Shown piece after piece: positions 3,001 through 22,152 of a DNA stretch of 64,000 bases. Source of the DNA: Kondoa subrosea (Eukaryota); the NCBI GenBank assembly GCA_039545335.1, contig BCIN01000002.1:2094484-2158483 (forward strand). Reading direction: 5' to 3'. Below the pieces are notes generated by a model, which worked only from the letters and a program-made list of their open reading frames with translations, ran no database searches and had not been told where the DNA came from. A program made the position numbers and the translations under genes. Position 1 is the first letter of the stretch, and every line of letters starts with the position of its first letter.

Positions 3001-3188
3001 TGCAGCTTGCGAGGACTCTTGTGTGGACTGCATTGACTCTGTCCATTAGAGGTCGCGGTAAATGCACTTGCTTTTAGACGAACTGAATGACCCAGAGCTC
3101 TTCTTATAGCTTCATCTGATCCACTAGCACTCTCTTGCTGCTCGAATCCCTGTTCTCGAAACCCCTCAATCCCGAATGAGTCTTGCAT
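1..3188 (-). CDS. VPS18: Vacuolar protein sorting 18 (Pep3), HOPS/CORVET subunit; multi-exon, 3' end runs off the window
   Basis: ORFs 2184-2942 (VFVDPSGQHLL, LIGTADGRIFE), 1515-2150 (ALTEFHFVL, EDRDIW) and 287-1063 (YDLDYALRL, LWLKVAAHVV). The reverse strand at 1-240 reads IEDILPFFPDFVVIDDFKEEICDAL, typical of the Vps18 C-terminal region. Confidence 0.92.
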
Positions 3189-3346
3189 GATTCATAGTCT
3201 CAAAAGGTTACCGGGAAAGAGGTTGCTTATTATTCAACTGATCGCAACTTGAAGTTTATTACTAGGCATTATGTTGCTGATCAGGTCCGGTACAAGGTTT
3301 GTCGTTTTCATCTATCTATCTACGCCTAGTATTCCCCGTCATTGCT

Positions 3347-5699: not shown

Positions 5700-8600
5700 T
5701 TACAAAGTCTGCCAACCTCCCGAATCAATTCCAGCTTCCAGCTTCCTCGCAACTACAATAGGTATCGTTTGCTTTAACCACATAGATCTCAATTCTTCGT
5801 ATCGCTTTATGTTCAGATACTGAGGTCGATGTCGTTTACATCCCATATCTGTTTCACCATGCGGATCGAGATAAGGTGAATTGATCATGCAGCCGTTACT
5901 CGCGTAGAGTGCAACGATGCAGGACTTGCGGATGAGAAGGAAGAGACCACTAGATCCACTGCATCTATAAACGGTATAACTAATCAGGTCGCGCTCGCGC
6001 GACGGCAACAGGAGAACCTACGAAAGCATATGCGAATTGCATTCCCCCAATTCTGGCTCATTCTCAAAATCCCGGTCCATGCAACAGAAGCTCTGGTGGC
6101 AAACAATCTGACCGCATAGAAGACATAGAGCCGGATCAGGTGGAACGTTGCCGCATTTCTTACAAACAGTTGCAGCGGCTCTTTCCACCAAATTGTCCAA
6201 TGTTGAAGGCAGAGATATGAGACCGTGAGGTAAAGGTGACTCAATAGGTACGAGTGATGGCGGAAGTGGAAATTCGAGGTAGGATTTCAGCCAATACCGA
6301 ATTCGAGCCATGAAGGGTTTTCGATTACTGGTATTGAAATGCATTAGGGTTGTTGGATTTGGTATATGAAGGAGTCCAAGTAATTGGGAAAATTCTTGAC
6401 TGGTGCCTTGTGGTATGTTAGTGAGCTGCGCAGATTCGGGTAGTAGAGCTTGGAGAAGGAGTTTCGCTCGACGAAGGAAAGGAAGTGCCAGACATGACGT
6501 TAGCTGACCAAGATGCTGAAGATGAACGGATTGTAGCGGAAGGATATAGGGATGTTTGGCATAGTGTCGCGTGAGCTCGAGCACTACCATCCCGATTTGT
6601 TCACATTCGACAGATTCAGTGTAAGGCTGAACAGCAGCGAGACGGTCGAAACCGCCAATTCGATGCATATTGACCAGGATCCGCAGCAATTCTAAGTAGA
6701 AGCAAAGAACCATATGATATCTGATCGTCGAGGGGTTCAGGGCTGCAAGCTCGACCAATAGCTCGAACGGGTCTCGCAAAAGAACCGGTGTACGAAGATA
6801 AGAGGCGTGTCGAAGAGGCGTTGATATTGTAAGTCGAGCGCTTGCGATCGCTGCAAGATCTTCTGCTAGCACAGTTTGCGCTGCGCCTAATTGTGCCAAC
6901 TGTCTTATGCATAGCAGTAGACTATTGATAATTAGCGAAGACTTTGCTGACGCTTCATCGTCTACAGCCGATATCGCCTGACTTCTCTGCTGGATTTCCA
7001 TCACTGCGATAGTATAGGCGACCAACTCGTTCGGAAGATATGCCGAATGAGTCTCGATCGTTTTCACTGTATTTCGATGCGCTTCGATGCTCAAAGGCCA
7101 GGCAACTTGCATCAATCTTTGCAACATTGCAAGCTCCGATCCACTTGCTTCGCCGACTGATGCTTGCTGGTGAGCAGCGGGTAAGTCTTCATCAATTTTG
7201 AGAGTTCGCAATTGGCCAGCATCGGAACGAGTGAAAGCTTGCAACAGATCCGCCGTCCGGCCCGCTAATTCGGTAATAGCTGGCCTGGATGCCCAATCTT
7301 CTAACTCGTCAATAATCGTTGCGTCTTCCTGCGCCGGAATTGGTGCTACTACTGGATCTTGATGAGAGTATGGCAGCAAGACATTACCGAGACTTTTGCA
7401 AAGCGGACAGATGAATTCTCTTCGACCAAGGTTTTCCGGATGATTTCTAGTAGGCTGACCCGCGTGTCTAGTTTCGACTGATTGACAATAGGTTTGGAAG
7501 CAGGCAAGGTGCATCTTGTGACCGCAGCTCGATAGATAAAGACCAGCAAGATAAGCTCTTGAATGGCCTGTCCCGAATGACATCTCGAAATCGTCATTGG
7601 ACACAGACAGGGTCGAATTAGATGCCAGAATGTCCATAGTAGCCTCAGAGTCCTCTGGATCAAGACCACGTCTGGTAGAGCTCGATTGAATCAAAGCTAG
7701 AGATCCGAAAGCTTCCTGCTTTTTGAGGATTTCTTGACAGACGATGCAGCTCCCATAGATTTCACTTGCTTCTGCTGACGAACTTTGATCCATGTCTTCA
7801 TCATCGTCAACGTCATCAAAGTCTATTGGATTATCGTCAATGAACGTCTGCCGTGCTTTAGCGAATTGTGCTAGGACAGCTGCTTGACGGTCTTTGGCAG
7901 CTTGTTTCTTTGCTTCCAGAGCTTGAGCAGCGATATCGAAACTTGAGCTCTCGGACAGAATGCTTGGAGTTGGTGGCAGAACTGGTTGCTGAGATTGAGC
8001 TTGACATTGCTGAATGCATAGTTCGAGCTTGATCTTTAGCAGCTCTCCATTGATTTTGCTTTTCAAGTCGATTAAAGATTGCATAGCGGAACTCTCACTT
8101 AGAGCAGCATTAATGTTGAGTATGGCTTCCGGTGTTCGCAAAGCCATCAAGAGCAATTGAAGGGTCGCGTCCAAAAGAGGCTCGGAGACGTCACTTCTGG
8201 CTTGCTGCCATTGCAGAACTCTTGCAAGCAGAGTGCCAAACAACTTTGTGCCAAAGGCTTTGTATAAACTGAGAAGTAAAGCTGATGATTGAGATAGTTG
8301 AGATGTCGCATCGAACCATCTTGACATGTCCGGGAACCGATTGCTCTCTTCTATTGCAGATGTCACTTCATCCCTTTGGTTACGAGAATAGCGGAAATAG
8401 AAAGGATGTACTTCATCTAATAGATTTGGTAGAAGAGTGTAGACGCCATGATCGAAAGCACCTTGAGGTTTCCGATAAGTCGACACTTCACTCAAAATTC
8501 TATCTAATTGGGGTGATTCGGAAGATTGATCCGCTAGCTTTTTGACCAGTTCGCTATGAGAGCAAGATCCGAGAGCTAAAGCATGCACTACATCTCGGCG

Positions 8601-11073
8601 AATACGTTGATCTGTTGACCATCCAGCTAGATTGGCAGGCTCGCCGAGCAGCACCACCAGTAGTAGCAGGAACTCTTCTAGCATAGTCTGACTTTGTTGA
8701 GCATCATAGTGATTCTGGTTGTTGTCTTGCTGATCCAGGATTCCGACCAGATTGTATCGATCGAGAAGAGCGACCAGCATCTGTTCAGGTCTGTCAATTA
8801 GTCCAAGTTGAAGGAGATAGGTATCTTGATCGTAAGTATTCTCCCGTAGATTATATTCTCGGTAATGTAGCTGTTGGGCTCGGACGCTGAAGCCGTTTCG
8901 AACCCATAAACCAGCTCGGATTTGCGAGACCAGAACACATGCTGCAATCATCTGATCAGACCTCACTTGTCAATGTATGCAATAACTTACTGCTTAGGGC
9001 ATCTTCTACAGCAAACAGCGAGCCAAAGCTGACAGCCAATCCAGGTAGAGAGAGGAGTGACATTTGGTTCCCGATTCCGTTGCTTTCCGCAATAGCCGAA
9101 ACGTTCTTGCACACCTCTCCGAACAGCCAAGAGACCGGATGATGGAAACTAACAGGGTCGACCAAAACATTATGATTGACACATTCATAGACGATGCCAT
9201 CGAAATTGACCTGATGGAAAGCTTTCGGTGTGTTTTTCTTTGCAATAATGGATATAGCTTCTTGTACTCTTGCTATATCGCTTGAAGAGCTGAAGACTTC
9301 TCCCACTGATCGACAGGCTTTTGCCATATGCATTGTCAAATTGAAGGCCGTGACCCAAGTATCGGCCTCAAATTCCACATGTTCCGTCACTGCTCGAACA
9401 ATTGGATTCATTCCTGTGAAAAGACCTGCGAAAGAAACGAAGAAAGCGATGTTCGAGGAATTGGATGCTAAAGCTTGTTGTGCCTCTGTGGACTGGATCA
9501 AGCGCCGGAGATCTGAGAAGATGTAGAGGTATCGTTTGTGCTTGAAGGAGCTGCTGTCGGGCGAAACATGGGTAATGCTCAGATTAGGTGGAAGATTCAG
9601 ATGTTTTCCAGATCGATCTAATTGTTCAGTGAAGAAGGCGTGTAAGATACAAATGATGATAGGGAAAGCGTTGTGTGCTGAAATAAGATAAGTCGCAATG
9701 TTGGGTATAGCGAAAAGTTGCATGCTCAGTTGAATGATTGAGTATTCTGGTTCTCGATCGGAAAACAGATAGGTGTCCATAAGTACTGGGTATAGATGCA
9801 TGAAAAGACCAGCTGATAAAACAGATCAGACATCGGGGAAAGCGGGAATTGAAAGGCTCACCGAATGTTTGTCTGACCAGACCGCCCAATGACATAACTC
9901 GAACGACCAACTCCCTGACACCTAACCTAGTAGCTTTCCACAATCTACTATCATGTAATAGAAGCTTGCTGAACCTCGACGCATTTGGCAATCCACCTAA
10001 AGATTCCGCAATGATTTGGAGGAAGATCGGCGCTGCTTGCTTTTCACCTTGTACATTGACTTGAGCGAGATCATTCAAAAAGTCAATGATGACGCCAGTC
10101 GCTAATTCAGCAAAGACTTGATCTGCTGGACTGATACTTACTGCGAGATCGATATTGGCGATAGTACGGGATACATGCCGCAGACGAGCGTCGACGGAGG
10201 AGAGCAAGACGACTTCTCTTCCAGTTGAGTCGATTCTAAGAGCGGCGTCCAAGGCGGTAGAAGTAGTCATAGTCGGTACAGCTCGACATAGCTGATCAAT
10301 AACTGCATCGAAACTGTGCTTCTCGTCGTTCCAAAGTACGACACAGGATAAAACATCGGCTTGGATAGAATCCAATTGTTGTACGATCTCGGTAGAAGCA
10401 GGTGAAGCACTCCATGTTTCGATGCAAAAATCCAGTAAGGTTGCTATCAGATGTTTCCATTTGTCTAGAAGATCTGAAGGAAGTACTACTTGTGTGAAGA
10501 TGTTTTCGGAAGAGGGAACATCTGAAACCGGTCCTTGAGTGTTCTTCCATAATTCTGGATCTCCAGCTGAACAAGCCAAAGCACCACCTGCATGAATTTG
10601 AAAGGTAATATCGTGTGAGATATGTCGTGATGGATCGTAGCAGTCGACGCAGAGGAAAGAAGCTTCGTCGTGTCCGCAGTCTCTGCAATTCCTTCGTCAG
10701 CTTGACGGTATTGCTTTGAAGTCTGCCTCGCTGACCGACAAGCATATACACCTTGACCTTGTTTAAAGATATGCCCGCATCTATTCTTTGTGACCTTTGA
10801 GCTCATCTCCTGCTGTTGCCTGCTGTGCAAAGTCCAGTCGAGCGGCACATTTGTTTGCGAGAGTATAGACAATCCAGGCAAGATCTCAGGCGACTCGCCC
10901 ACGGTATCAAGTAGACCAGAGTAAAGCACATGTCTCAAAGCTTGGATGACGCTTGCTGTAGCTCCAGAGTAATCTGCAGCTTCACGACATTGCGCTTGAA
11001 TTTGAGCCAATGATGCACGCAAGGCCGAGAGAGATGAAAGCGGTCCTCCATCAGAGCTGTCCGAAGTGTTCAT
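5700..11073 (-). CDS. UBR1: E3 ubiquitin ligase Ubr1 (N-recognin)
   Basis: UBR box (RCGHIFK...CRDC), ClpS-like VLWNDEKHSF, QIRAGLWVRNG, RING (CIVC...SCGHKMHLAC...CPLCKSLGN), and C-terminal PYLDPHGETD. Confidence 0.95.
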
Positions 11074-13979: not shown

Positions 13980-14494
13980 GACATATCAAACGTTTCTTCC
14001 CCTTCCCCTTCGAGCACCCCTGAACCTCGCTCTTCCAAATACAGTTTCTCGGCATCGTAGATATTTTCAGTTTGACAAGCAGTTCCTTTTCTGTAATCAA
14101 GAGTCTCATCGCCTTGTGGGTCCTTGGTAGATGCAAAGTAGCATAGTCTTATGGTACATTCACAAATGACCTGAAAAGTCACAGACATCTGAACCGCATG
14201 ATGAGCCAATCCAGCAGAGCTCTTCGCAGCATTGTATCGCTCACACGACACCTCACATGTGGTGAGAGTCTCAAAAGAAAGTCTTCAGCTGGACTTGTTT
14301 GGTACAGCACGTGACTTTTTTTGTAAGCTATAACCTTGGTCACTGGCTCACCAGAGATTTGGGACGCCCATCGACTTCAACAACCATCCGCGAACCTTGC
14401 AAGTGGTAGCAGTTGCTTAGGCTCAAATCCATCTATAATGTCCTCTCATCCTATAGAACCCAACCAATCCGCCAACATTGAAATCCTGGTTTAT

Positions 14495-15001
14495 CGGAGT
14501 CGAGTGAATACTTGGAACTCGTCAAAGTTCAACCGTCGAAGCGAGTAAATCTCCAATGGTCATTCATCCATGTCACTCCCTCGTAGGCCTGGACCTCGGG
14601 ATTCGTTAGCGGTCGAAGCACGCGTCTGCCCCTTTTCCTTAAACGCAGTTCGCAGTCTCCTGCTTGGTGAGGTCTCTTGACCAACATGCCGTACTGAGAA
14701 CTCACACTATCCTCAGGTCAAGCCTTGTCATCGCTTCATTTATCTTCTGGAGGATTTATCCCTAAATTCGCGTGACAAGCTTCCTGTGAGTTGAGCTCAG
14801 CTCTCCTTGACTTTCGCGCATCTTAACCGGCTGCATAGCATACTGCCTGCATCGGAGTACGCCTATCGGAGTCTGTGGTTATAGAAGCGCGCGTAGTCAA
14901 GCTGGTGCGCTTGTTCGACCTTTGTCTCAGTAGAGAAAAGCGAGTCTAACACGCTTTGTGGGAAGCAGGTCTTGACTCGAAGTACATCTCGTCAAAGGAT
15001 A
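14495..15001 (+). repeat. Split direct repeat A1 (507 bp, intron-containing)
   Basis: Matches 20048-20554 at offset 5553; one difference spotted by eye (G14893 vs A20446). Confidence 0.95.
14667..14968 (+). other. Spliceosomal introns within repeat A1: 14667-14716, 14786-14838, 14905-14968 (same positions +5553 in A2)
   Basis: GTGAGG..CTCAC..CAG, GTGAGT..CTTAAC..TAG and GTGCGC..CTAAC..CAG. The second and third are precisely absent from the copy at 15152-15467; the first is supported by the TG|GTCAAG junction at 15150-15157. Confidence 0.9.
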
Positions 15002-15149
15002 TTCTTCTTAACAATCTCACTCACTCTTTTATCGCGAATCTTACCTCAATCTCTTTCTTTCGATTCACCTTATGTCGGCGAACTATGACAAGGTGGTTAA
15101 CCTCATCAATAACTTCGATGAGAAGGAAGCTATGGATGTCGCAAGCGAA

Positions 15150-15467
15150 TGGTCAAGCCTTGTCATCGCTTCATTTATCTTCTGGAGGATTTATCCCTAA
15201 ATTCGCGTGACAAGCTTCCTCATACTGCCTGCATCGGAGTACGCCTATCGGAGTCTGTGGTTATAGAAGCGCGCATAGTCAAGCTGGTCTTGACTCGAAG
15301 TACATCTCGTCAAAGGATATTCTTCTTAACAATCTCACTCACTCTTTTATCGCGAATCTTACCTCAATCTCTTTCTTTCGATTCACCTTATGTCGGCGAA
15401 CTATGACAAGGTGGTTAACCTCATCAATAACTTCGATGAGAAGGAAGCTATGGATGTCGCAAGCGAA
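15150..15467 (+). repeat. Tandem intron-less (processed) duplicate of the element leader and gag start
   Basis: 15152-15220 = 14717-14785; 15221-15286 = 14839-14904; 15287-15467 = 14969-15149. Confidence 0.95.
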
Positions 15468-16982
15468 GTCATTCAGCTTGTTGCAAAGGATCTACTCGAA
15501 CGATCCGAGGCCATTTCTTTCCTGTCAGTCTATCTCGAGAGCGACTATCATGAAGAAGACTGGTTACCCCTTTTGGATAATCTCATCGAAAACAGTCCTG
15601 ACGCAGAAGAGCGAGAACTCACGCACCTTCTTACCGAACAACCAGTTGAACCTGAAACTGAACCCGCCTCTGTTATCGGTGGATATGGCATGCGAAAATA
15701 CAGGGTTCCTAAGCAGCCGTATGGTCAAGAACGTGTCGATGGTGATGATAGTTCCGATGAGTTACCTAAGAAGCCAAGTGATCCGAAGGGAAAGCGGAAG
15801 GCTGTTGAATTTGAAGTGGATCAATTATTCCAACCTCCTGCTAAGAAAGGTCGACTTCAAGATTCTCCTCCTGTTGCTTCCACTTCAAAAGTCCCTTTGT
15901 CTAGCCAATCTGCACCGCGTCGAGCTTCAGCTGCTTTACCTAAATCTGCCAAAGCTACAAAACGGCAAGTCCCCAGTGATAGATCAAAAGCTGCCGAAAA
16001 CAATAGGACTCTCTTTTCTCGATCAATCTCCCCGGAACCTGTGCCAGTCGGAAGAGTTAATGATCCAATTCAACCAAGTCAACCTTTGCCTGCGCCCAAA
16101 CCCAACCCCGCCGAAGCTGAGTTATTTGCTCGCTTGGCAGAAGAGCTGCGCCCCTCTCTCGGCAAGAAGCCTGCCGTTGAACCTCCGAAAGCTAACTCTT
16201 ACATTCCCTCTCTGGCTTTACCAGCTCAATCTTCTAGCTCCGCGCAATCCAATGGTCGATCAGATGTATTGGCACGCTTGCAGATGCTGCGAAGACAAAC
16301 AATCGTGGACGCTTCATGTCCTATTCTCAAGCAAACGCTGGAAACCAGATTGGTTTACTTGGGAGAAGTCGATAGCGAAGGAGCTGCTGAAACCCTTCGC
16401 CTTGGAGCAAATATTCGTTTCCCCAAAGATGGCATGCTCAAGCTCATCCACGATGACTACGTCGATATGTCGGCGGTTTTGTCCAATTTGTTTAATCAAC
16501 CCAAAGTTGTTACAAACTTCGAGACCTGGCTTATGGCATGGCAGCACTATTCCTCAGTTGTTGAAGTCTTCTACCCTCATCGGTCTAAGGAACTATCATC
16601 GTATGCATCGCTCATCAATTCTTGCTTTATCGAGCACCCAGCAACTGCAATCGAGACCGATCGACGAATCAGGCGAGAATACGCTACCTCCCATAGCTTT
16701 TCCCTGCTACAAAAAGAACTGTATTCAGATATCCGTATCAATGTCCGATTGGCCGCTGCTTCAAGTGCGCTACCCTCTACTTCTTCTTCTTCTCCGGGTT
16801 CTGGTCGGTCTCGTAAACGCGATCCCCGTCCTCTTGAGGAGCAAATTTGTAATAAGTACAACTCTGGTATCGCTCACGACTCATGCAAGCGACGACATGT
16901 CTGCGAGAATTGTAGAACAGACAAAGACGCTCATCCCGCCATCAAGTGTGCCAAGAAACGCAGTGCAAGCAACAGCAAGTGA
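15390..16982 (+). CDS. Gag-like ORF1 of the YR retrotransposon
   Basis: 530 aa with a helical region (WLMAWQHYSSVVEVFYPHRSKELSSY) and a C-terminal Cys/His knuckle (CNKYN...CKRRHVCENC...HPAIKC). Confidence 0.88.
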   Translation: MSANYDKVVNLINNFDEKEAMDVASEVIQLVAKDLLERSEAISFLSVYLESDYHEEDWLPLLDNLIENSPDAEERELTHLLTEQPVEPETEPASVIGGYGMRKYRVPKQPYGQERVDGDDSSDELPKKPSDPKGKRKAVEFEVDQLFQPPAKKGRLQDSPPVASTSKVPLSSQSAPRRASAALPKSAKATKRQVPSDRSKAAENNRTLFSRSISPEPVPVGRVNDPIQPSQPLPAPKPNPAEAELFARLAEELRPSLGKKPAVEPPKANSYIPSLALPAQSSSSAQSNGRSDVLARLQMLRRQTIVDASCPILKQTLETRLVYLGEVDSEGAAETLRLGANIRFPKDGMLKLIHDDYVDMSAVLSNLFNQPKVVTNFETWLMAWQHYSSVVEVFYPHRSKELSSYASLINSCFIEHPATAIETDRRIRREYATSHSFSLLQKELYSDIRINVRLAAASSALPSTSSSSPGSGRSRKRDPRPLEEQICNKYNSGIAHDSCKRRHVCENCRTDKDAHPAIKCAKKRSASNSK

Positions 16983-18876
16983 ACTGCAACTGCGTGAACA
17001 TCCTTCGGGTTTACCTGGCATCGATTCGATTCCGAAATATAAACGCCAGTTTGTGTTTAGTCCCGATGAAATCCCTTCTTCCCCGTCTGTTGAGCGCACC
17101 TATACTCTTCCTGCACCAGCTCTGATTCCTCCATCCTTCTTATCGGATCCGGTACTGACATACTCGCTTATGAAAGCAAAGCACCTCATCAAGGTCGAAA
17201 CTCCATTCAATATTGCATTGCTTGAAAGGCTTCTGAGGCACCACCCAAATCAACCTCTCGTTACTTGGGCAATTCACTCGCTGCAATACGGTTTTTGGCC
17301 TGGTATGGAAGGCAATTCGCAACGTTTCGCCTCTCGCTCGGAAATTCAGTATGACCTGGATATGGCTGATTTGCGCTTGCTGGCCACCAATGCAATCGAT
17401 GAAGTCGCTAAAGGTCATTACTCTCCAGCCTTTGACACCCTTCTCCCTGGAATGCACGTCTCACCTCAATTCATCGTTCGAAGAGTCGATGACAGTCCGA
17501 ATCAAGGTCGTGTTGTAACTGATCAGTCAGCTTCGGGGCTGAACGATGCTTTAAATGCGGGTCAAGTCCAGTACGACAATCTTCGTGATCTTTCTCGACT
17601 GGTGCGATATAATCGTTTCCGTGATGTCGACCGTTTCTTCTCTACTGGCTGGAAAAGCGACATCTCCGGCGCTTTTCGTAACCTCCCTATGCATCCGATA
17701 TGGCAACTCTTTCAAGTCGTTCGTGTGCCGGTCTTTGAAGAAGAAGTTCATATCGGCTGGAATTATCACATAGATCGGCGCGGTGCTTTCGGCAGTCGCC
17801 GCCTGCCCTTTCTCTTCACAACTATCATGGCACTGATTTCATGGGCTGCTCAGCACGAGTTTCGACTGCCGAATCCCCTCTTCTTCGTCGATGATAGTTT
17901 TGGCCAGGACTGTTCCGGTGTTTTCCGCCCACTTACTCATTTGGGTGAGACACGTCTTGTCCCTGCGCAGCAATGGATTCTACTACGGACTTGGCAAATG
18001 CTCAACGTGCCGTGGAAATGGGTCAAACAAATTTTCGGGGTTCGCATAGTCATCCTTGGCTTCGATTTCGATTTTCGCAGTCTCACCATACATATACCGA
18101 AGGCAGCGATTGATCGGCTGGAAGATACTATCACTCGTTTTCTTCGCAACAATAGTCCACCGCTCAAAGAATGGCGTTCCATCATTGGTTACCTTAATTG
18201 GGTTTTAAATGTCATTCCGCTGGCTGCTCCTTTAATGGAATGTCTTTATGCCAAGACAAAGGGAAAGCAGGTCGAGTCAGCCGGTATTTGTCATAACCAG
18301 GCAACTAGGAGTACCCTACTTTGGTTCATCGCTGAACTCCGACAAAACCCATCTCTCGACCTTCTTTCTTTACGGTGTACCAATTGGCAACCGCATGAAG
18401 CCGATTTGGTTATCTTTACGGATGCATGCTTGCAAAGCCGTAAGTCACAGGGTGTCGGTTTGGGCTTTCATTACACTGTCGAGGGTCGTCTATATGGGTT
18501 CTATCATCGGTCTTTTTCTCTTCCCGACGACGATATCTACTTCAATGAAGCGTATACTATTCTTGCAGCTATCCGACATGCTACAGAAATGCCCACACCA
18601 CCGCGTCGTTTGCTGGTCTATTCGGACTCGGCTCTATCATGCTATGCTTTCAATCGAGGTCGTGCAGCTGGTTATCCCAACGCAATCATAGATGCTGCTT
18701 TCCATCTTCTTCGCCTGCACGACATTGAACTGCGGGTGTTTCACATTCCTGGCAAACAGAATGTGGTTGCGGACGATTTGTCTCGTTTGGTTCTTGCGGC
18801 ACTTCGCAGTCTTCATGGTTTTTTCTCCATCCAGCATTTTCAACCCCCACCTTTGGCGTTGGGGGCAGCACTGTGA
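15403..18876 (+). CDS. Reverse transcriptase / RNase H ORF; its N-terminal ~525 codons overlap gag in the +1 frame
   Basis: RT motifs KSDISGAFRNLP, AFGSRRLP, FVDD, ILGFDFD; RNase H motifs IFTDA, NEA, YSDS, NVVADDLSR. Confidence 0.93.
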   Translation: MTRWLTSSITSMRRKLWMSQAKSFSLLQRIYSNDPRPFLSCQSISRATIMKKTGYPFWIISSKTVLTQKSENSRTFLPNNQLNLKLNPPLLSVDMACENTGFLSSRMVKNVSMVMIVPMSYLRSQVIRRESGRLLNLKWINYSNLLLRKVDFKILLLLLPLQKSLCLANLHRVELQLLYLNLPKLQNGKSPVIDQKLPKTIGLSFLDQSPRNLCQSEELMIQFNQVNLCLRPNPTPPKLSYLLAWQKSCAPLSARSLPLNLRKLTLTFPLWLYQLNLLAPRNPMVDQMYWHACRCCEDKQSWTLHVLFSSKRWKPDWFTWEKSIAKELLKPFALEQIFVSPKMACSSSSTMTTSICRRFCPICLINPKLLQTSRPGLWHGSTIPQLLKSSTLIGLRNYHRMHRSSILALSSTQQLQSRPIDESGENTLPPIAFPCYKKNCIQISVSMSDWPLLQVRYPLLLLLLRVLVGLVNAIPVLLRSKFVISTTLVSLTTHASDDMSARIVEQTKTLIPPSSVPRNAVQATASELQLREHPSGLPGIDSIPKYKRQFVFSPDEIPSSPSVERTYTLPAPALIPPSFLSDPVLTYSLMKAKHLIKVETPFNIALLERLLRHHPNQPLVTWAIHSLQYGFWPGMEGNSQRFASRSEIQYDLDMADLRLLATNAIDEVAKGHYSPAFDTLLPGMHVSPQFIVRRVDDSPNQGRVVTDQSASGLNDALNAGQVQYDNLRDLSRLVRYNRFRDVDRFFSTGWKSDISGAFRNLPMHPIWQLFQVVRVPVFEEEVHIGWNYHIDRRGAFGSRRLPFLFTTIMALISWAAQHEFRLPNPLFFVDDSFGQDCSGVFRPLTHLGETRLVPAQQWILLRTWQMLNVPWKWVKQIFGVRIVILGFDFDFRSLTIHIPKAAIDRLEDTITRFLRNNSPPLKEWRSIIGYLNWVLNVIPLAAPLMECLYAKTKGKQVESAGICHNQATRSTLLWFIAELRQNPSLDLLSLRCTNWQPHEADLVIFTDACLQSRKSQGVGLGFHYTVEGRLYGFYHRSFSLPDDDIYFNEAYTILAAIRHATEMPTPPRRLLVYSDSALSCYAFNRGRAAGYPNAIIDAAFHLLRLHDIELRVFHIPGKQNVVADDLSRLVLAALRSLHGFFSIQHFQPPPLALGAAL

Positions 18877-19874
18877 TGACTAGAGCAAGAAACGGATCCG
18901 CTAGCAAGCGGGTCCACCCTGCCTCTCAAGCGGTGAATTCTCTGTCAAAAGAAGAGCTGGTACAGTTTAGTCGACACCTGCAACTGTCAGCTTTTGAGGC
19001 ATCCACTATCAAGGGTCATCGCGCCGCCCTGAAGCTCTGGCTTGAATTTGTCAATGTATACAACTTCCCCGTCTTACCGTCGGCTTATACTCTTGCTCTC
19101 TTTGTCAGCTTCGCAATTCGGCGCATCAAATCTGTCACGTCTTATCTAGCTGGCGTTGGACATTACTTTCGCGACTATACACCTTGGGATGAAATTCGCT
19201 TCCATCCGCTGGTCACAGAAACCCTGAAGGGAGCTATGAAATGGAAGGGACAGTCTGTTCGTCGTCGCGATCCCCTTACTTTGGCTCACATCCGGTTCCT
19301 CTTTGACCGCGCATTGGATCCTCTCGCGTCCTTCGACGACATTCTGTTTGCTGTTCTCATCTGCTGTGGCACCTTCGCAATGCATCGACTTGGAGAACTC
19401 ACTGCTCCGCGAAAAGACGATCCATCTGCTCATAGAAAGGTCATTCTGCGCAGTTCCGTCAACCTTTCTCCTGATGGTTTCTCTTATCACCTACCATACC
19501 ATAAAGGTGGCGCTCTCTTCCAAGGGGACACGGTTCGGCTCGTCCCAGAATCCTGTCCTGATCTACCGATCCTACCTTTGTTCGCAAAATATCTTCTGAA
19601 GCGCGATACACTTGTCGATTCGCCTTACCTTTTCGTCCGCGAAAATGGCACACTTCCTTCAGCAGCTTGGTTCCACTCTCGCCTGTCGATACTGGACGAG
19701 AACAATCTCGGTGGTCATTCCATGCGGGCTGGGGGTGCTACATATTTCTTTTCTCGTGGTATCCCGCCCGAAATTATCCGCAAGCTTGGTCGTTGGTCTT
19801 CAGCAGCATTCGACATGTATATCCGTCAACATGCCTCAGTGCTCATGCAGGCCTTCGTCGCCTCGGCCGAATGA
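18876..19874 (+). CDS. Tyrosine recombinase (YR)
   Basis: Catalytic R (HRLGEL), HxxR (GHSMRAGGAT), GRWSS and Y (FDMYIR). ATG 18876 overlaps the RT stop codon (TGATG). Confidence 0.95.
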   Translation: MTRARNGSASKRVHPASQAVNSLSKEELVQFSRHLQLSAFEASTIKGHRAALKLWLEFVNVYNFPVLPSAYTLALFVSFAIRRIKSVTSYLAGVGHYFRDYTPWDEIRFHPLVTETLKGAMKWKGQSVRRRDPLTLAHIRFLFDRALDPLASFDDILFAVLICCGTFAMHRLGELTAPRKDDPSAHRKVILRSSVNLSPDGFSYHLPYHKGGALFQGDTVRLVPESCPDLPILPLFAKYLLKRDTLVDSPYLFVRENGTLPSAAWFHSRLSILDENNLGGHSMRAGGATYFFSRGIPPEIIRKLGRWSSAAFDMYIRQHASVLMQAFVASAE

Positions 19875-19922
19875 TCGCCTTTTCTTCTTTTTCGCTCTTT
19901 TTCATCTCTCTCTAGCCTTTTA

Positions 19923-20047
19923 GCGTTTTCGGCTCTCATTATCGATTCTGTTCGTCTGTATGTGGCTATTACCCAATGTATACTCGCACGTTTTGCTACT
20001 TCAACGCCCCATATCACTTGGAATGCAACGAGCAAGAAACGGTTGGT
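19923..20047 (+). repeat. Split direct repeat B1 (125 bp)
   Basis: Matches 20615-20739 (GCGTTTTCGG...CGGTTGGT). Confidence 0.95.
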
Positions 20048-20554
20048 CGGAGTCGAGTGAATACTTGGAACTCGTCAAAGTTCAACCGTCGAAGCGAGTA
20101 AATCTCCAATGGTCATTCATCCATGTCACTCCCTCGTAGGCCTGGACCTCGGGATTCGTTAGCGGTCGAAGCACGCGTCTGCCCCTTTTCCTTAAACGCA
20201 GTTCGCAGTCTCCTGCTTGGTGAGGTCTCTTGACCAACATGCCGTACTGAGAACTCACACTATCCTCAGGTCAAGCCTTGTCATCGCTTCATTTATCTTC
20301 TGGAGGATTTATCCCTAAATTCGCGTGACAAGCTTCCTGTGAGTTGAGCTCAGCTCTCCTTGACTTTCGCGCATCTTAACCGGCTGCATAGCATACTGCC
20401 TGCATCGGAGTACGCCTATCGGAGTCTGTGGTTATAGAAGCGCGCATAGTCAAGCTGGTGCGCTTGTTCGACCTTTGTCTCAGTAGAGAAAAGCGAGTCT
20501 AACACGCTTTGTGGGAAGCAGGTCTTGACTCGAAGTACATCTCGTCAAAGGATA
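20048..20554 (+). repeat. Split direct repeat A2 (507 bp, introns retained)
   Basis: Copy of 14495-15001 directly abutting B1, forming a circle-junction-like B|A joint. Confidence 0.95.
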
Positions 20555-20614
20555 CCCGCCCGCCCTCACCTGTTTGTGTTTGTATGTATTGGGAATGTTG
20601 TGTATTGGGATGTT

Positions 20615-20739
20615 GCGTTTTCGGCTCTCATTATCGATTCTGTTCGTCTGTATGTGGCTATTACCCAATGTATACTCGCACGTTTTGCTACTTCAACGCC
20701 CCATATCACTTGGAATGCAACGAGCAAGAAACGGTTGGT
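20615..20739 (+). repeat. Split direct repeat B2 (right terminus of the element)
   Basis: Copy of 19923-20047. Confidence 0.95.
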
Positions 20740-22152
20740 GAAGACCAACCCGCAGGTAGAGTTGCCCTGGAGTGTCACCATAAACCTCGGCGGGAAAGGT
20801 CTAATCACATCAGAAGACTCTTGAAGGATCGTCCAAAAGGCACCAACGCAAAGCTAAACCAACCGTTAAGCGATATTGAAGACTTAGGCAGGTTGTGGCG
20901 TCGCACTGCCAAACGATTGTCTGCGGTATCTACTGGATCGGAGGATGACAGGTTTAACGTCGACGACGTCTCATTCGAAATCTCTGTAGAGCCCTCATCA
21001 ACAACATTCAAAAGTTCGGTCGAATCATCAACGGCGTCAATGTCGTCAACTTCCTCTGGATCATCTTCTAGATCAGCCTCCCGGAGCTCTCGACAAGAAG
21101 CCAAACATCGCAAGCGAGCTCCAATCGGCGGCGAAGGCAAAGTGGTGAGCGTGCATGTGGAAACTTATAAGAAAGGTTCTCGAAATGTATGTGTTGTCTG
21201 TTTTCTTATCACGCCTTAGCCTAACTTGCTTATTTTACATTGGCAGTACTATCATCAAATGCAAGGGGAGATAGCCAAGGCTCAACTAGCTCAAAAGATT
21301 GCTGAATTGGACGCTGAAAGAGAGCGTGCGGAGCATGAGAAAGAGAAAAGAAAGTTGGAGGCAGAGCGCTTGAAAGCTGAGGTGAAGCGTTTGGAAGCTG
21401 AAGGGAAGTTGGCGGAGCACCTTCGAGAGACGAACAGCAAAATCCTCTTAAATTGGCAGATCTCCGTATTGGTCGTGGAAGGTACGATTCAATCAAAGCC
21501 TCCATCGTTTGCTCCTTGTCTCATATCTTGCTGTAGCTACAACTGTATGGATGAAATCCCTCGACCCTGAATCTACGAAGGAAATGGATAATATGACTCG
21601 TACGCTCGCGGCTTCTTTCGCAAAGGCCTGTATGGTAATGTCGAGCTACAGTGCGCCAGAATCTCCTTCGAATGTCTGTTCCACAATCACAAACATGGCC
21701 GGTCATAAAGGAGATCTTCGATACGCTGCCCGCAGCAATACAGGAACTTGCCCAGAGCGCCTGTTTCAATTTGAAGCCGGCCGAAGCTCAAAAACGTCAT
21801 GCTTACTGTCATCCACAACCCAATAGAGAAGAGCTGTACACCTACTTTCTGCGAGAAACCCAATGGTCCGATAAAGATCGCGAAGCTATCTCAGCAATCG
21901 ATAAGCTTGCGCGACAGAAGATAAAAAGATCAGGCGCTTCTCCAGATGTGACGGAAGCATTTCCAGTTTCGTAGACTGTCTTCCTCGCTGTATGTCATGC
22001 TTTGGTTAGAGTTGAGTAGTACATACTTGCTGGATGAAGCCTTGCTTGTCTCTGAGATTCGACAAACTTGACAGCTCCTTTGCCCATGGTGCGAGACTCG
22101 ACGCCTTCACGAGATTACTTAAACTTCTTGCTTTTGACCACCAACCCTAAAT

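Follow-up and report, generated by a model that had tools for sequence, protein, structure and literature searches.

Introns in the terminal repeat of a predicted Ngaro-type retrotransposon from Kondoa subrosea, and an intron-less duplicate of its leader

Introduction

Retroelements copy themselves via RNA, so introns should be lost from them; Penelope-like elements are the usual cited exception. Ngaro retrotransposons, reportedly described by Goodwin and Poulter in 2004, are said to belong to the DIRS order. A missing methyltransferase domain separates Ngaro from the DIRS and PAT types. [quoted passage not shown]

The Ngaro layout is given as A1-[gag, RT/RNase H, recombinase]-B1A2B2 in the available portions of two descriptions (PMC3783388, PMC8547959). 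In the available text of the fungal survey (PMC3783388), the words “intron” and “splic” are absent. A literature search, whose reach lay outside the 2004/2005 papers of Goodwin and Poulter, returned no title or abstract opening on introns in Ngaro repeats. For DIRS-1 of Dictyostelium, another tyrosine-recombinase retroelement, the accessible sections report that most of the left repeat, the suggested promoter, is missing from the transcript and that the lost ends are rebuilt from an internal copy; a DIRS-1 carrying an engineered marker intron gave both spliced and unspliced cDNA forms (PMC7192593). Penelope-like elements retain spliceosomal introns in their genomic copies, and the portion of the literature at hand leaves open whether their template is unspliced sense RNA or arises by another route (PMC3846280, citing Arkhipova et al. 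2003). In the long leaders of retroviruses and pararetroviruses, short uORFs and splicing shape translation and replication of the pregenomic RNA, according to the available part of PMC5902531.

Here, we analyze a retroelement of K. subrosea within a 64-kb stretch of DNA (contig BCIN01000002.1 of assembly GCA_039545335.1), hereafter the window, in which all positions are numbered. The element shares the Ngaro layout. It differs from Ngaro as described in that its A repeat appears to carry at least two working spliceosomal introns, its spliced leader is duplicated, and its pol frame stays open throughout gag. Judged against the available text on the other systems, it shares a tyrosine recombinase with DIRS-1, whereas in DIRS-1 the repeats are inverted and accompanied by an internal complementary region, the intron described in that text is an engineered marker, and the start site, here inferred from sequence, is known. 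Like Penelope-like elements, it keeps introns in its genomic copies and raises the same question of template. Those elements have, in the text available, a different RT class, a GIY-YIG endonuclease, pseudo-LTRs, and no tyrosine recombinase; here, in addition, an intron-less fossil adjoins the intron-bearing copy. Retroviral and pararetroviral uORFs, as presented in the accessible source, were shown in the transcript and tested, whereas those discussed below are known from sequence alone.

Results

Self-BLAST finds a single such retroelement within the window, at 14494-20739 on the forward (+) strand, the strand of all features below. We predict that it is an Ngaro-type tyrosine-recombinase retrotransposon, fungal-type, young, and single-copy. 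It has split direct repeats in the order A1-[gag, RT/RNase H, tyrosine recombinase]-B1A2B2. The 5′ repeat A1 (14494-15001) matches A2 (20047-20554) over 508 nt with one mismatch, at 14893, and A2 holds all four candidate introns. B1 (19923-20047) and B2 (20615-20739, the right end of the element) are 125 nt long and 100% identical. The stretch 14495-15071 is the front repeat (A1) plus the leader of this Ngaro-type element.

The left flank (14481-14499) contains GGTTTAT, and both the B1/A2 junction (20033-20052) and the right end of B2 (20726-20745) contain GGTTGGT, with one shared T. Insertion by a recombinase is expected to involve a brief resemblance of this kind between target and circle junction. 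The element lies in the same orientation within a putative host ORF, the start of which is at 14438-14494. When 14495-20739 is removed in silico and the flanks (the right one being 20740-21219) are read together, a single 178-codon ORF runs from ATG 14438 to a stop at 21217; as present now, the frame from ATG 14438 stops after 36 codons, at 14546. Given this position, read-through from the host promoter could supply RNA spanning all of A1.

Unitig depths came from two DNA runs of one sample, which may be the assembly's own source and are thus not independent of it: 143 for the flank, 133 for the element interior, 252-287 for the A repeat (287 for the intron-3 unitig), and 408 and 387 for the exon 3 and exon 4 unitigs. 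These depths fit one element copy in the genome that carries three copies of exons 3-4. None of the short unitigs listed bridges 15149/15152.

The coding region comprises a gag ORF (15390-16982, 530 aa; from the ORF list and alignment to relatives), a pol-frame ORF of 1157 codons (15403-18876, ATG at 15403) with its RT/RNase H part from ~16951, and a tyrosine recombinase ORF, ORF3 (18876-19874, 332 aa). A representative protein library contains 1534 relatives of the pol part at E ≤ 0.001, the best at only 38-40% identity, and the pol part shows kinship to the RT/RNase H of tyrosine-recombinase elements. A pol profile gave weak matches to solved RT chains (E = 0.026). RVT_1 appeared below the cutoff in three of six relatives (E from 1.9e-5 to 4.5e-4), and RVT_3 did so in a fourth (E = 0.001), as well as in the query itself at E = 0.17. 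The pol translation also contains an FVDD motif, which we take to be the RT motif. At E ≤ 0.01, Pfam assigned no family to gag, pol, the recombinase, or the pol-frame N-terminus of the query.

ORF3 encodes a tyrosine recombinase, instead of a DDE integrase. It aligned with relatives in their C-terminal parts (E as low as 5e-58), and a profile including it matched both Cre recombinase (E = 1.1e-6) and, at E = 8.8e-4, a XerC-like recombinase; as a single sequence it had no match in PDB or Pfam. Alignment of ORF2 to relatives covers residues 20-636 of 641 and leaves no room for an extra domain. No methyltransferase family was found in Pfam at E ≤ 0.01, a weak silence given that Pfam misses the RT as well.

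Neither the protein library, nor a word-index protein search, nor a metagenome scan yielded a close relative. The nearest named relative is fungal (Basidiomycota-type): a Leucosporidium protein of 38% identity, labelled “Tyr recombinase do...”, which was the one match of the word-index search. In the metagenome scan, 80 loci showed 28-39% identity; of these, we examined the 23 longer ones. A1/A2 pairs occur in only two of these 23 (L052 and L080), and two others (L002 and L058) have only B-like pairs. The closest metagenome relative, L002 (39% RT identity), has its B1/B2-like pair at 7831-7903 and 8607-8680, and no A1 copy was detectable upstream of the RT in its 10.4-kb contig. A search of 14300-15600 against Rfam yielded no match at E ≤ 1.

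The open pol frame extends from 15211 to 18876 and overlaps all of gag (15390-16982). This +1 frame of gag contains 0 stops, against a mean of 12.9 and a minimum of 4 in 5000 codon-order shuffles, while pol (641 codons) has 13 stops in its +1 frame and the recombinase (332 codons) has 7. The context of the gag ATG (15390) is weak, with C at -3 and T at +4. The pol-frame ATG (15403) follows 13 nt later and has A at -3. The open frame and the AUG pair together suggest possible leaky scanning or an overprinted protein. Residues 258-521 of gag match the N-terminal parts of 15 of 150 relatives; the N-terminus of the pol frame (516 aa) has no match among these same 150.

Two introns of the leader are recorded in the element itself. 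The segment 15152-15467 repeats 14717-15149 minus exactly 14786-14838 and 14905-14968 (316 nt, one mismatch). The first missing interval, intron 3, is 53 nt long (GTGAGT..TAG), and the second, intron 4, is 64 nt long (GTGCGC..CTAAC..CAG); neither contains an ATG. GT..AG borders combined with precise absence from an RNA-derived copy were found for introns 3 and 4 only. As both are exactly absent from the re-copy, they are real spliceosomal introns, and the copy derives from spliced RNA. The arrangement thus indicates that spliced RNA of the element has been reverse-transcribed at least once. The initial annotation described the terminal repeat as rich in introns; the leader does contain these two, while the two intervals that bear its ATGs are candidate introns.

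The re-copy of leader exons 3-5 (15152-15389) lacks any ATG, and unitig depth over exons 3 and 4 is about 3x. It starts at the counterpart of 14716/7 and is joined to codon 26 of a truncated duplicate of the gag start, 26 codons long (15072-15149), through a filler of 1-2 nt (T or TG, 15150-15151) that matches neither gag nor exon. Self-BLAST detected no intron-less form of exon 1-2 sequence within the window. The sole difference between A1 and A2 falls at 14893/15275/20446, where the intron-less copy agrees with A2 (A) rather than with A1 (G); two templates or a later mutation could account for this.

Other origins of this structure were considered and rejected. Trans- or back-splicing would have used a poor donor (GTCATT) at a junction that contains filler bases. 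Excision of the duplication as one large intron is not available, as by eye no choice of GT..AG restores the gag frame. Nor do 14786-14838 and 14905-14968 resemble insertions into A: both are bordered by GT..AG and have host-like lengths, and 14905-14968 has a consensus CTAAC branch motif.

The leader proper (14717-15071 minus the two introns) is 238 nt long once spliced and contains no AUG. In this copy, the proposal that splicing makes gag, taken to start at 15072, the first AUG applies to no more than a stump. ATG 15072 opens 42 codons that end with TAA at 15198, and the duplicate of the pol-frame ATG, at 15085, opens 41 codons that end with TGA at 15208. Full gag starts at 15390, and a transcript started in A1 has six ATGs before it (15072, 15085, 15118, 15132, 15136, and 15149), even when fully spliced.

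Upstream of 15072, the counts agree with the initial annotation. Between the left end of the element and 15072, there are exactly three ATGs. Two (14556 and 14570) lie in candidate intron 1 (14545-14586) and one (14686) lies in candidate intron 2 (14667-14716); the candidate exons contain none. Candidate intron 1 (42 nt, GTAAAT..TAG) has A instead of G at +5 and no CTRAY branch motif, is shorter than all 12 harvested host introns, and has a CCAAT (14553) overlapping its first ATG. Candidate intron 2 (50 nt, GTGAGG..CAG) has CTGAG or CTCAC near its 3′ end, which coincides with the start of the intron-less copy, and a length within the harvested range. By these signals, candidate 2 would be plausible and candidate 1 weak.

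The harvested host introns (n = 12) measure 49-112 nt, eight of them 49-59 nt. They were collected as GT..AG intervals bridging two open frames of at least 70 codons, a noisy set of 120 loci from which 12 passed a consensus score. This score favored G at +5 and CTRAY, so that only the lengths are unbiased.

Discussion

The ATG pattern upstream of gag exceeds chance only weakly. Under dinucleotide-preserving shuffles, the five candidate exons (368 nt) have 0 ATGs against a mean of 2.67 (P = 0.04), the 238 nt of proven spliced leader also have none, with 2.0 expected (P = 0.09), and the whole stretch 14495-15071 has 3 against 5.3 (P for three or fewer = 0.17). Candidate exons 1+2 (130 nt) are expected to hold just 0.35 (P of none = 0.68), so the absence of ATGs there is uninformative. 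Drawing an intron around an ATG is also easy. GT..AG intervals of 40-70 nt can enclose 961 of the 1096 ATGs on the + strand of the window and 1043 of the 1152 on the - strand (88-90%). With GTR..YAG these numbers fall to 493 and 566; with GTRA..YAG, which both candidates satisfy, to 193 and 219 (18-19%); and with GTRAG..YAG, which only candidate 2 satisfies, to 69 and 74. The pattern might thus be meaningless, the leader being short and moderately ATG-poor by composition. We consider this improbable. Two real introns lie within the same leader, there is the boundary coincidence at 14716/7, and translated mRNAs generally have leaders with few AUGs. Even so, the claim about upstream ATGs comes down to three ATGs and two candidate introns, and is not yet a result.

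If transcription instead began near the left end, candidate 2 and perhaps candidate 1 could be leader introns whose ATGs survive because selection acts on the mature 5′ UTR, with no switch involved. Several observations favor this. The start of the intron-less copy coincides exactly with the 3′ end of candidate 2, a kind of position that covers 0.2-0.5% of the window; candidate 2 has a GTGAGG donor, a CAG acceptor, and a host-like length; all three ATGs fall within 92 of 577 nt (positional P = 0.004, although the intervals were chosen post hoc); and the sole leader ATG of L080 lies in a GTGAGC..TAG interval. Against it, we can name no process that would leave an RNA 5′ end, or a cDNA junction bearing filler, exactly at a 3′ splice site. 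Splicing leaves no filler, and gag after the breakpoint reads GTCATT, a poor donor that shares only GTCA with the exon start. Furthermore, candidate 1 is weak, fewer than 51 nt of element sequence would be left for a promoter, and exons 1+2 are too short for their lack of ATGs to count. We judge this reading unlikely on balance. The full hypothesis of the initial annotation adds regulation to it: spliced RNA would be translated with gag as its first AUG, and unspliced RNA, muted by three upstream AUGs, would be reserved as the RT template. Every point in favor of unregulated leader introns counts here too. Unspliced RNA would, if the upstream region is transcribed, carry uORFs of 17, 36, and 3 codons, of which the shortest has A at -3; and the weak gag ATG followed by a better-placed pol-frame ATG is an arrangement that needs an AUG-free leader. 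However, such a switch requires everything that unregulated leader introns require plus the regulation, the intron-less copy shows that spliced RNA was reverse-transcribed too, and the first AUG after splicing gives 42 codons, with five more ATGs before that of gag. A regulated switch is therefore, in our estimate, very unlikely. We would give as little credence to its most elaborate form, in which Ngaro RNA would be sorted by splicing: upstream AUGs would occur only in two of the four repeat introns, unspliced RNA would be the template, the spliced AUG-free leader would feed a leaky-scanning AUG pair 13 nt apart (gag and a 1157-codon pol-frame ORF overprinting it), and the intron-less fossil would be a failure of sorting.

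The reading that we tentatively prefer, to which we give somewhat less than an even chance, is that 14495-14716 is a promoter, that RNA starts at or next to 14717, that the three ATGs are never in the leader, and that the duplication is a one-off product of strand transfer. The RNA behind the intron-less copy may have begun at 14716/7, that is, downstream of all three ATGs. Both the filler at the junction and the lack of intron-less exon 1-2 sequence fit such a start. ATG density also fits: 14495-14716 as a whole has 3 ATGs against 1.9 expected, a normal density, while the proven leader has none. We also count in its favor two motifs in this part, CCAAT at 14553 and ACGCGT at 14620 (0.049 expected per 222 nt on both strands), the small space left for a promoter if exon 1 of the initial annotation were real, and the DIRS-1 precedent. 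The A1 repeats of two distant relatives count likewise: L052 has a TATA-like box at 3319 and a CCAAT at 3272, L080 has a TATA-like box at 3037, and in both there are ATGs upstream of the box.

Some evidence opposes a promoter at 14495-14716. This part contains no TATA[AT]A. Positions directly after a GTRAG..YAG interval of 40-70 nt number 128 of 63,890 (0.2%) on the + strand, and those after a GTRNG..YAG interval number 307 (0.5%), so that a copy starting right after one is a coincidence at about the 1% level. In L080 (~30% RT identity), only one ATG, at 3103, occurs between the TATA-like box and the start codon of gag, and it falls in a 55-nt GTGAGC..TAG interval (3096-3150). This fits the idea of ATG-bearing leader introns and stands against a promoter, as one anecdote. 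In L052, where two ATGs (3438 and 3581) precede the 317-aa ORF, no strict intron candidate encloses either, and the strict pattern GTRNG + CTRAY + YAG gave no candidates in the leader of either locus. Both leaders, from two of the 23 loci examined, are not alignable with the leader at 14495-15071. Within L080 3070-3150, a near-repeat (ACCTTCCGTCT..TTGTATCCT) ends just before the GTGAGC start and again at the ..TAG end of the intron-like interval. Overall, a start at 14716/7 comes out slightly ahead of a true 3′ splice site between 14716 and 14717.

With a start at this position, the life cycle could run as follows. The first ~222 nt of A1 (14495-14716) would be the promoter part, absent from the RNA 5′ end and rebuilt from A2 in each cycle. 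Transcription would start at or adjoining 14717. The three ATGs would then be ordinary promoter sequence at normal density, one of them inside the CCAAT motif. The leader proper (14717-15071) would have two introns and be AUG-free once spliced, the usual state of a scanned 5′ UTR that feeds the first ORF. Since neither A1 nor A2 has lost its introns, replication would normally use unspliced RNA as its template. Reverse transcriptases that run off the end of a template leave filler like that at the junction. On one occasion, cDNA at the 5′ end of a spliced RNA would have gained 1-2 bases in this way and jumped to gag codon 26 on a second, unspliced template. The jump would have produced the tandem of A1 plus 26 gag codons followed by the intron-less leader plus full gag.

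We thus describe what appears to be a tyrosine-recombinase retroelement in which each of the two terminal-repeat copies retains at least two working introns, next to a record of its own spliced RNA having been reverse-transcribed. It offers a concrete system for asking how the RNA of such elements is assigned to translation or to templating. Furthermore, the start of the re-copy could map the 5′ end of an Ngaro transcript.
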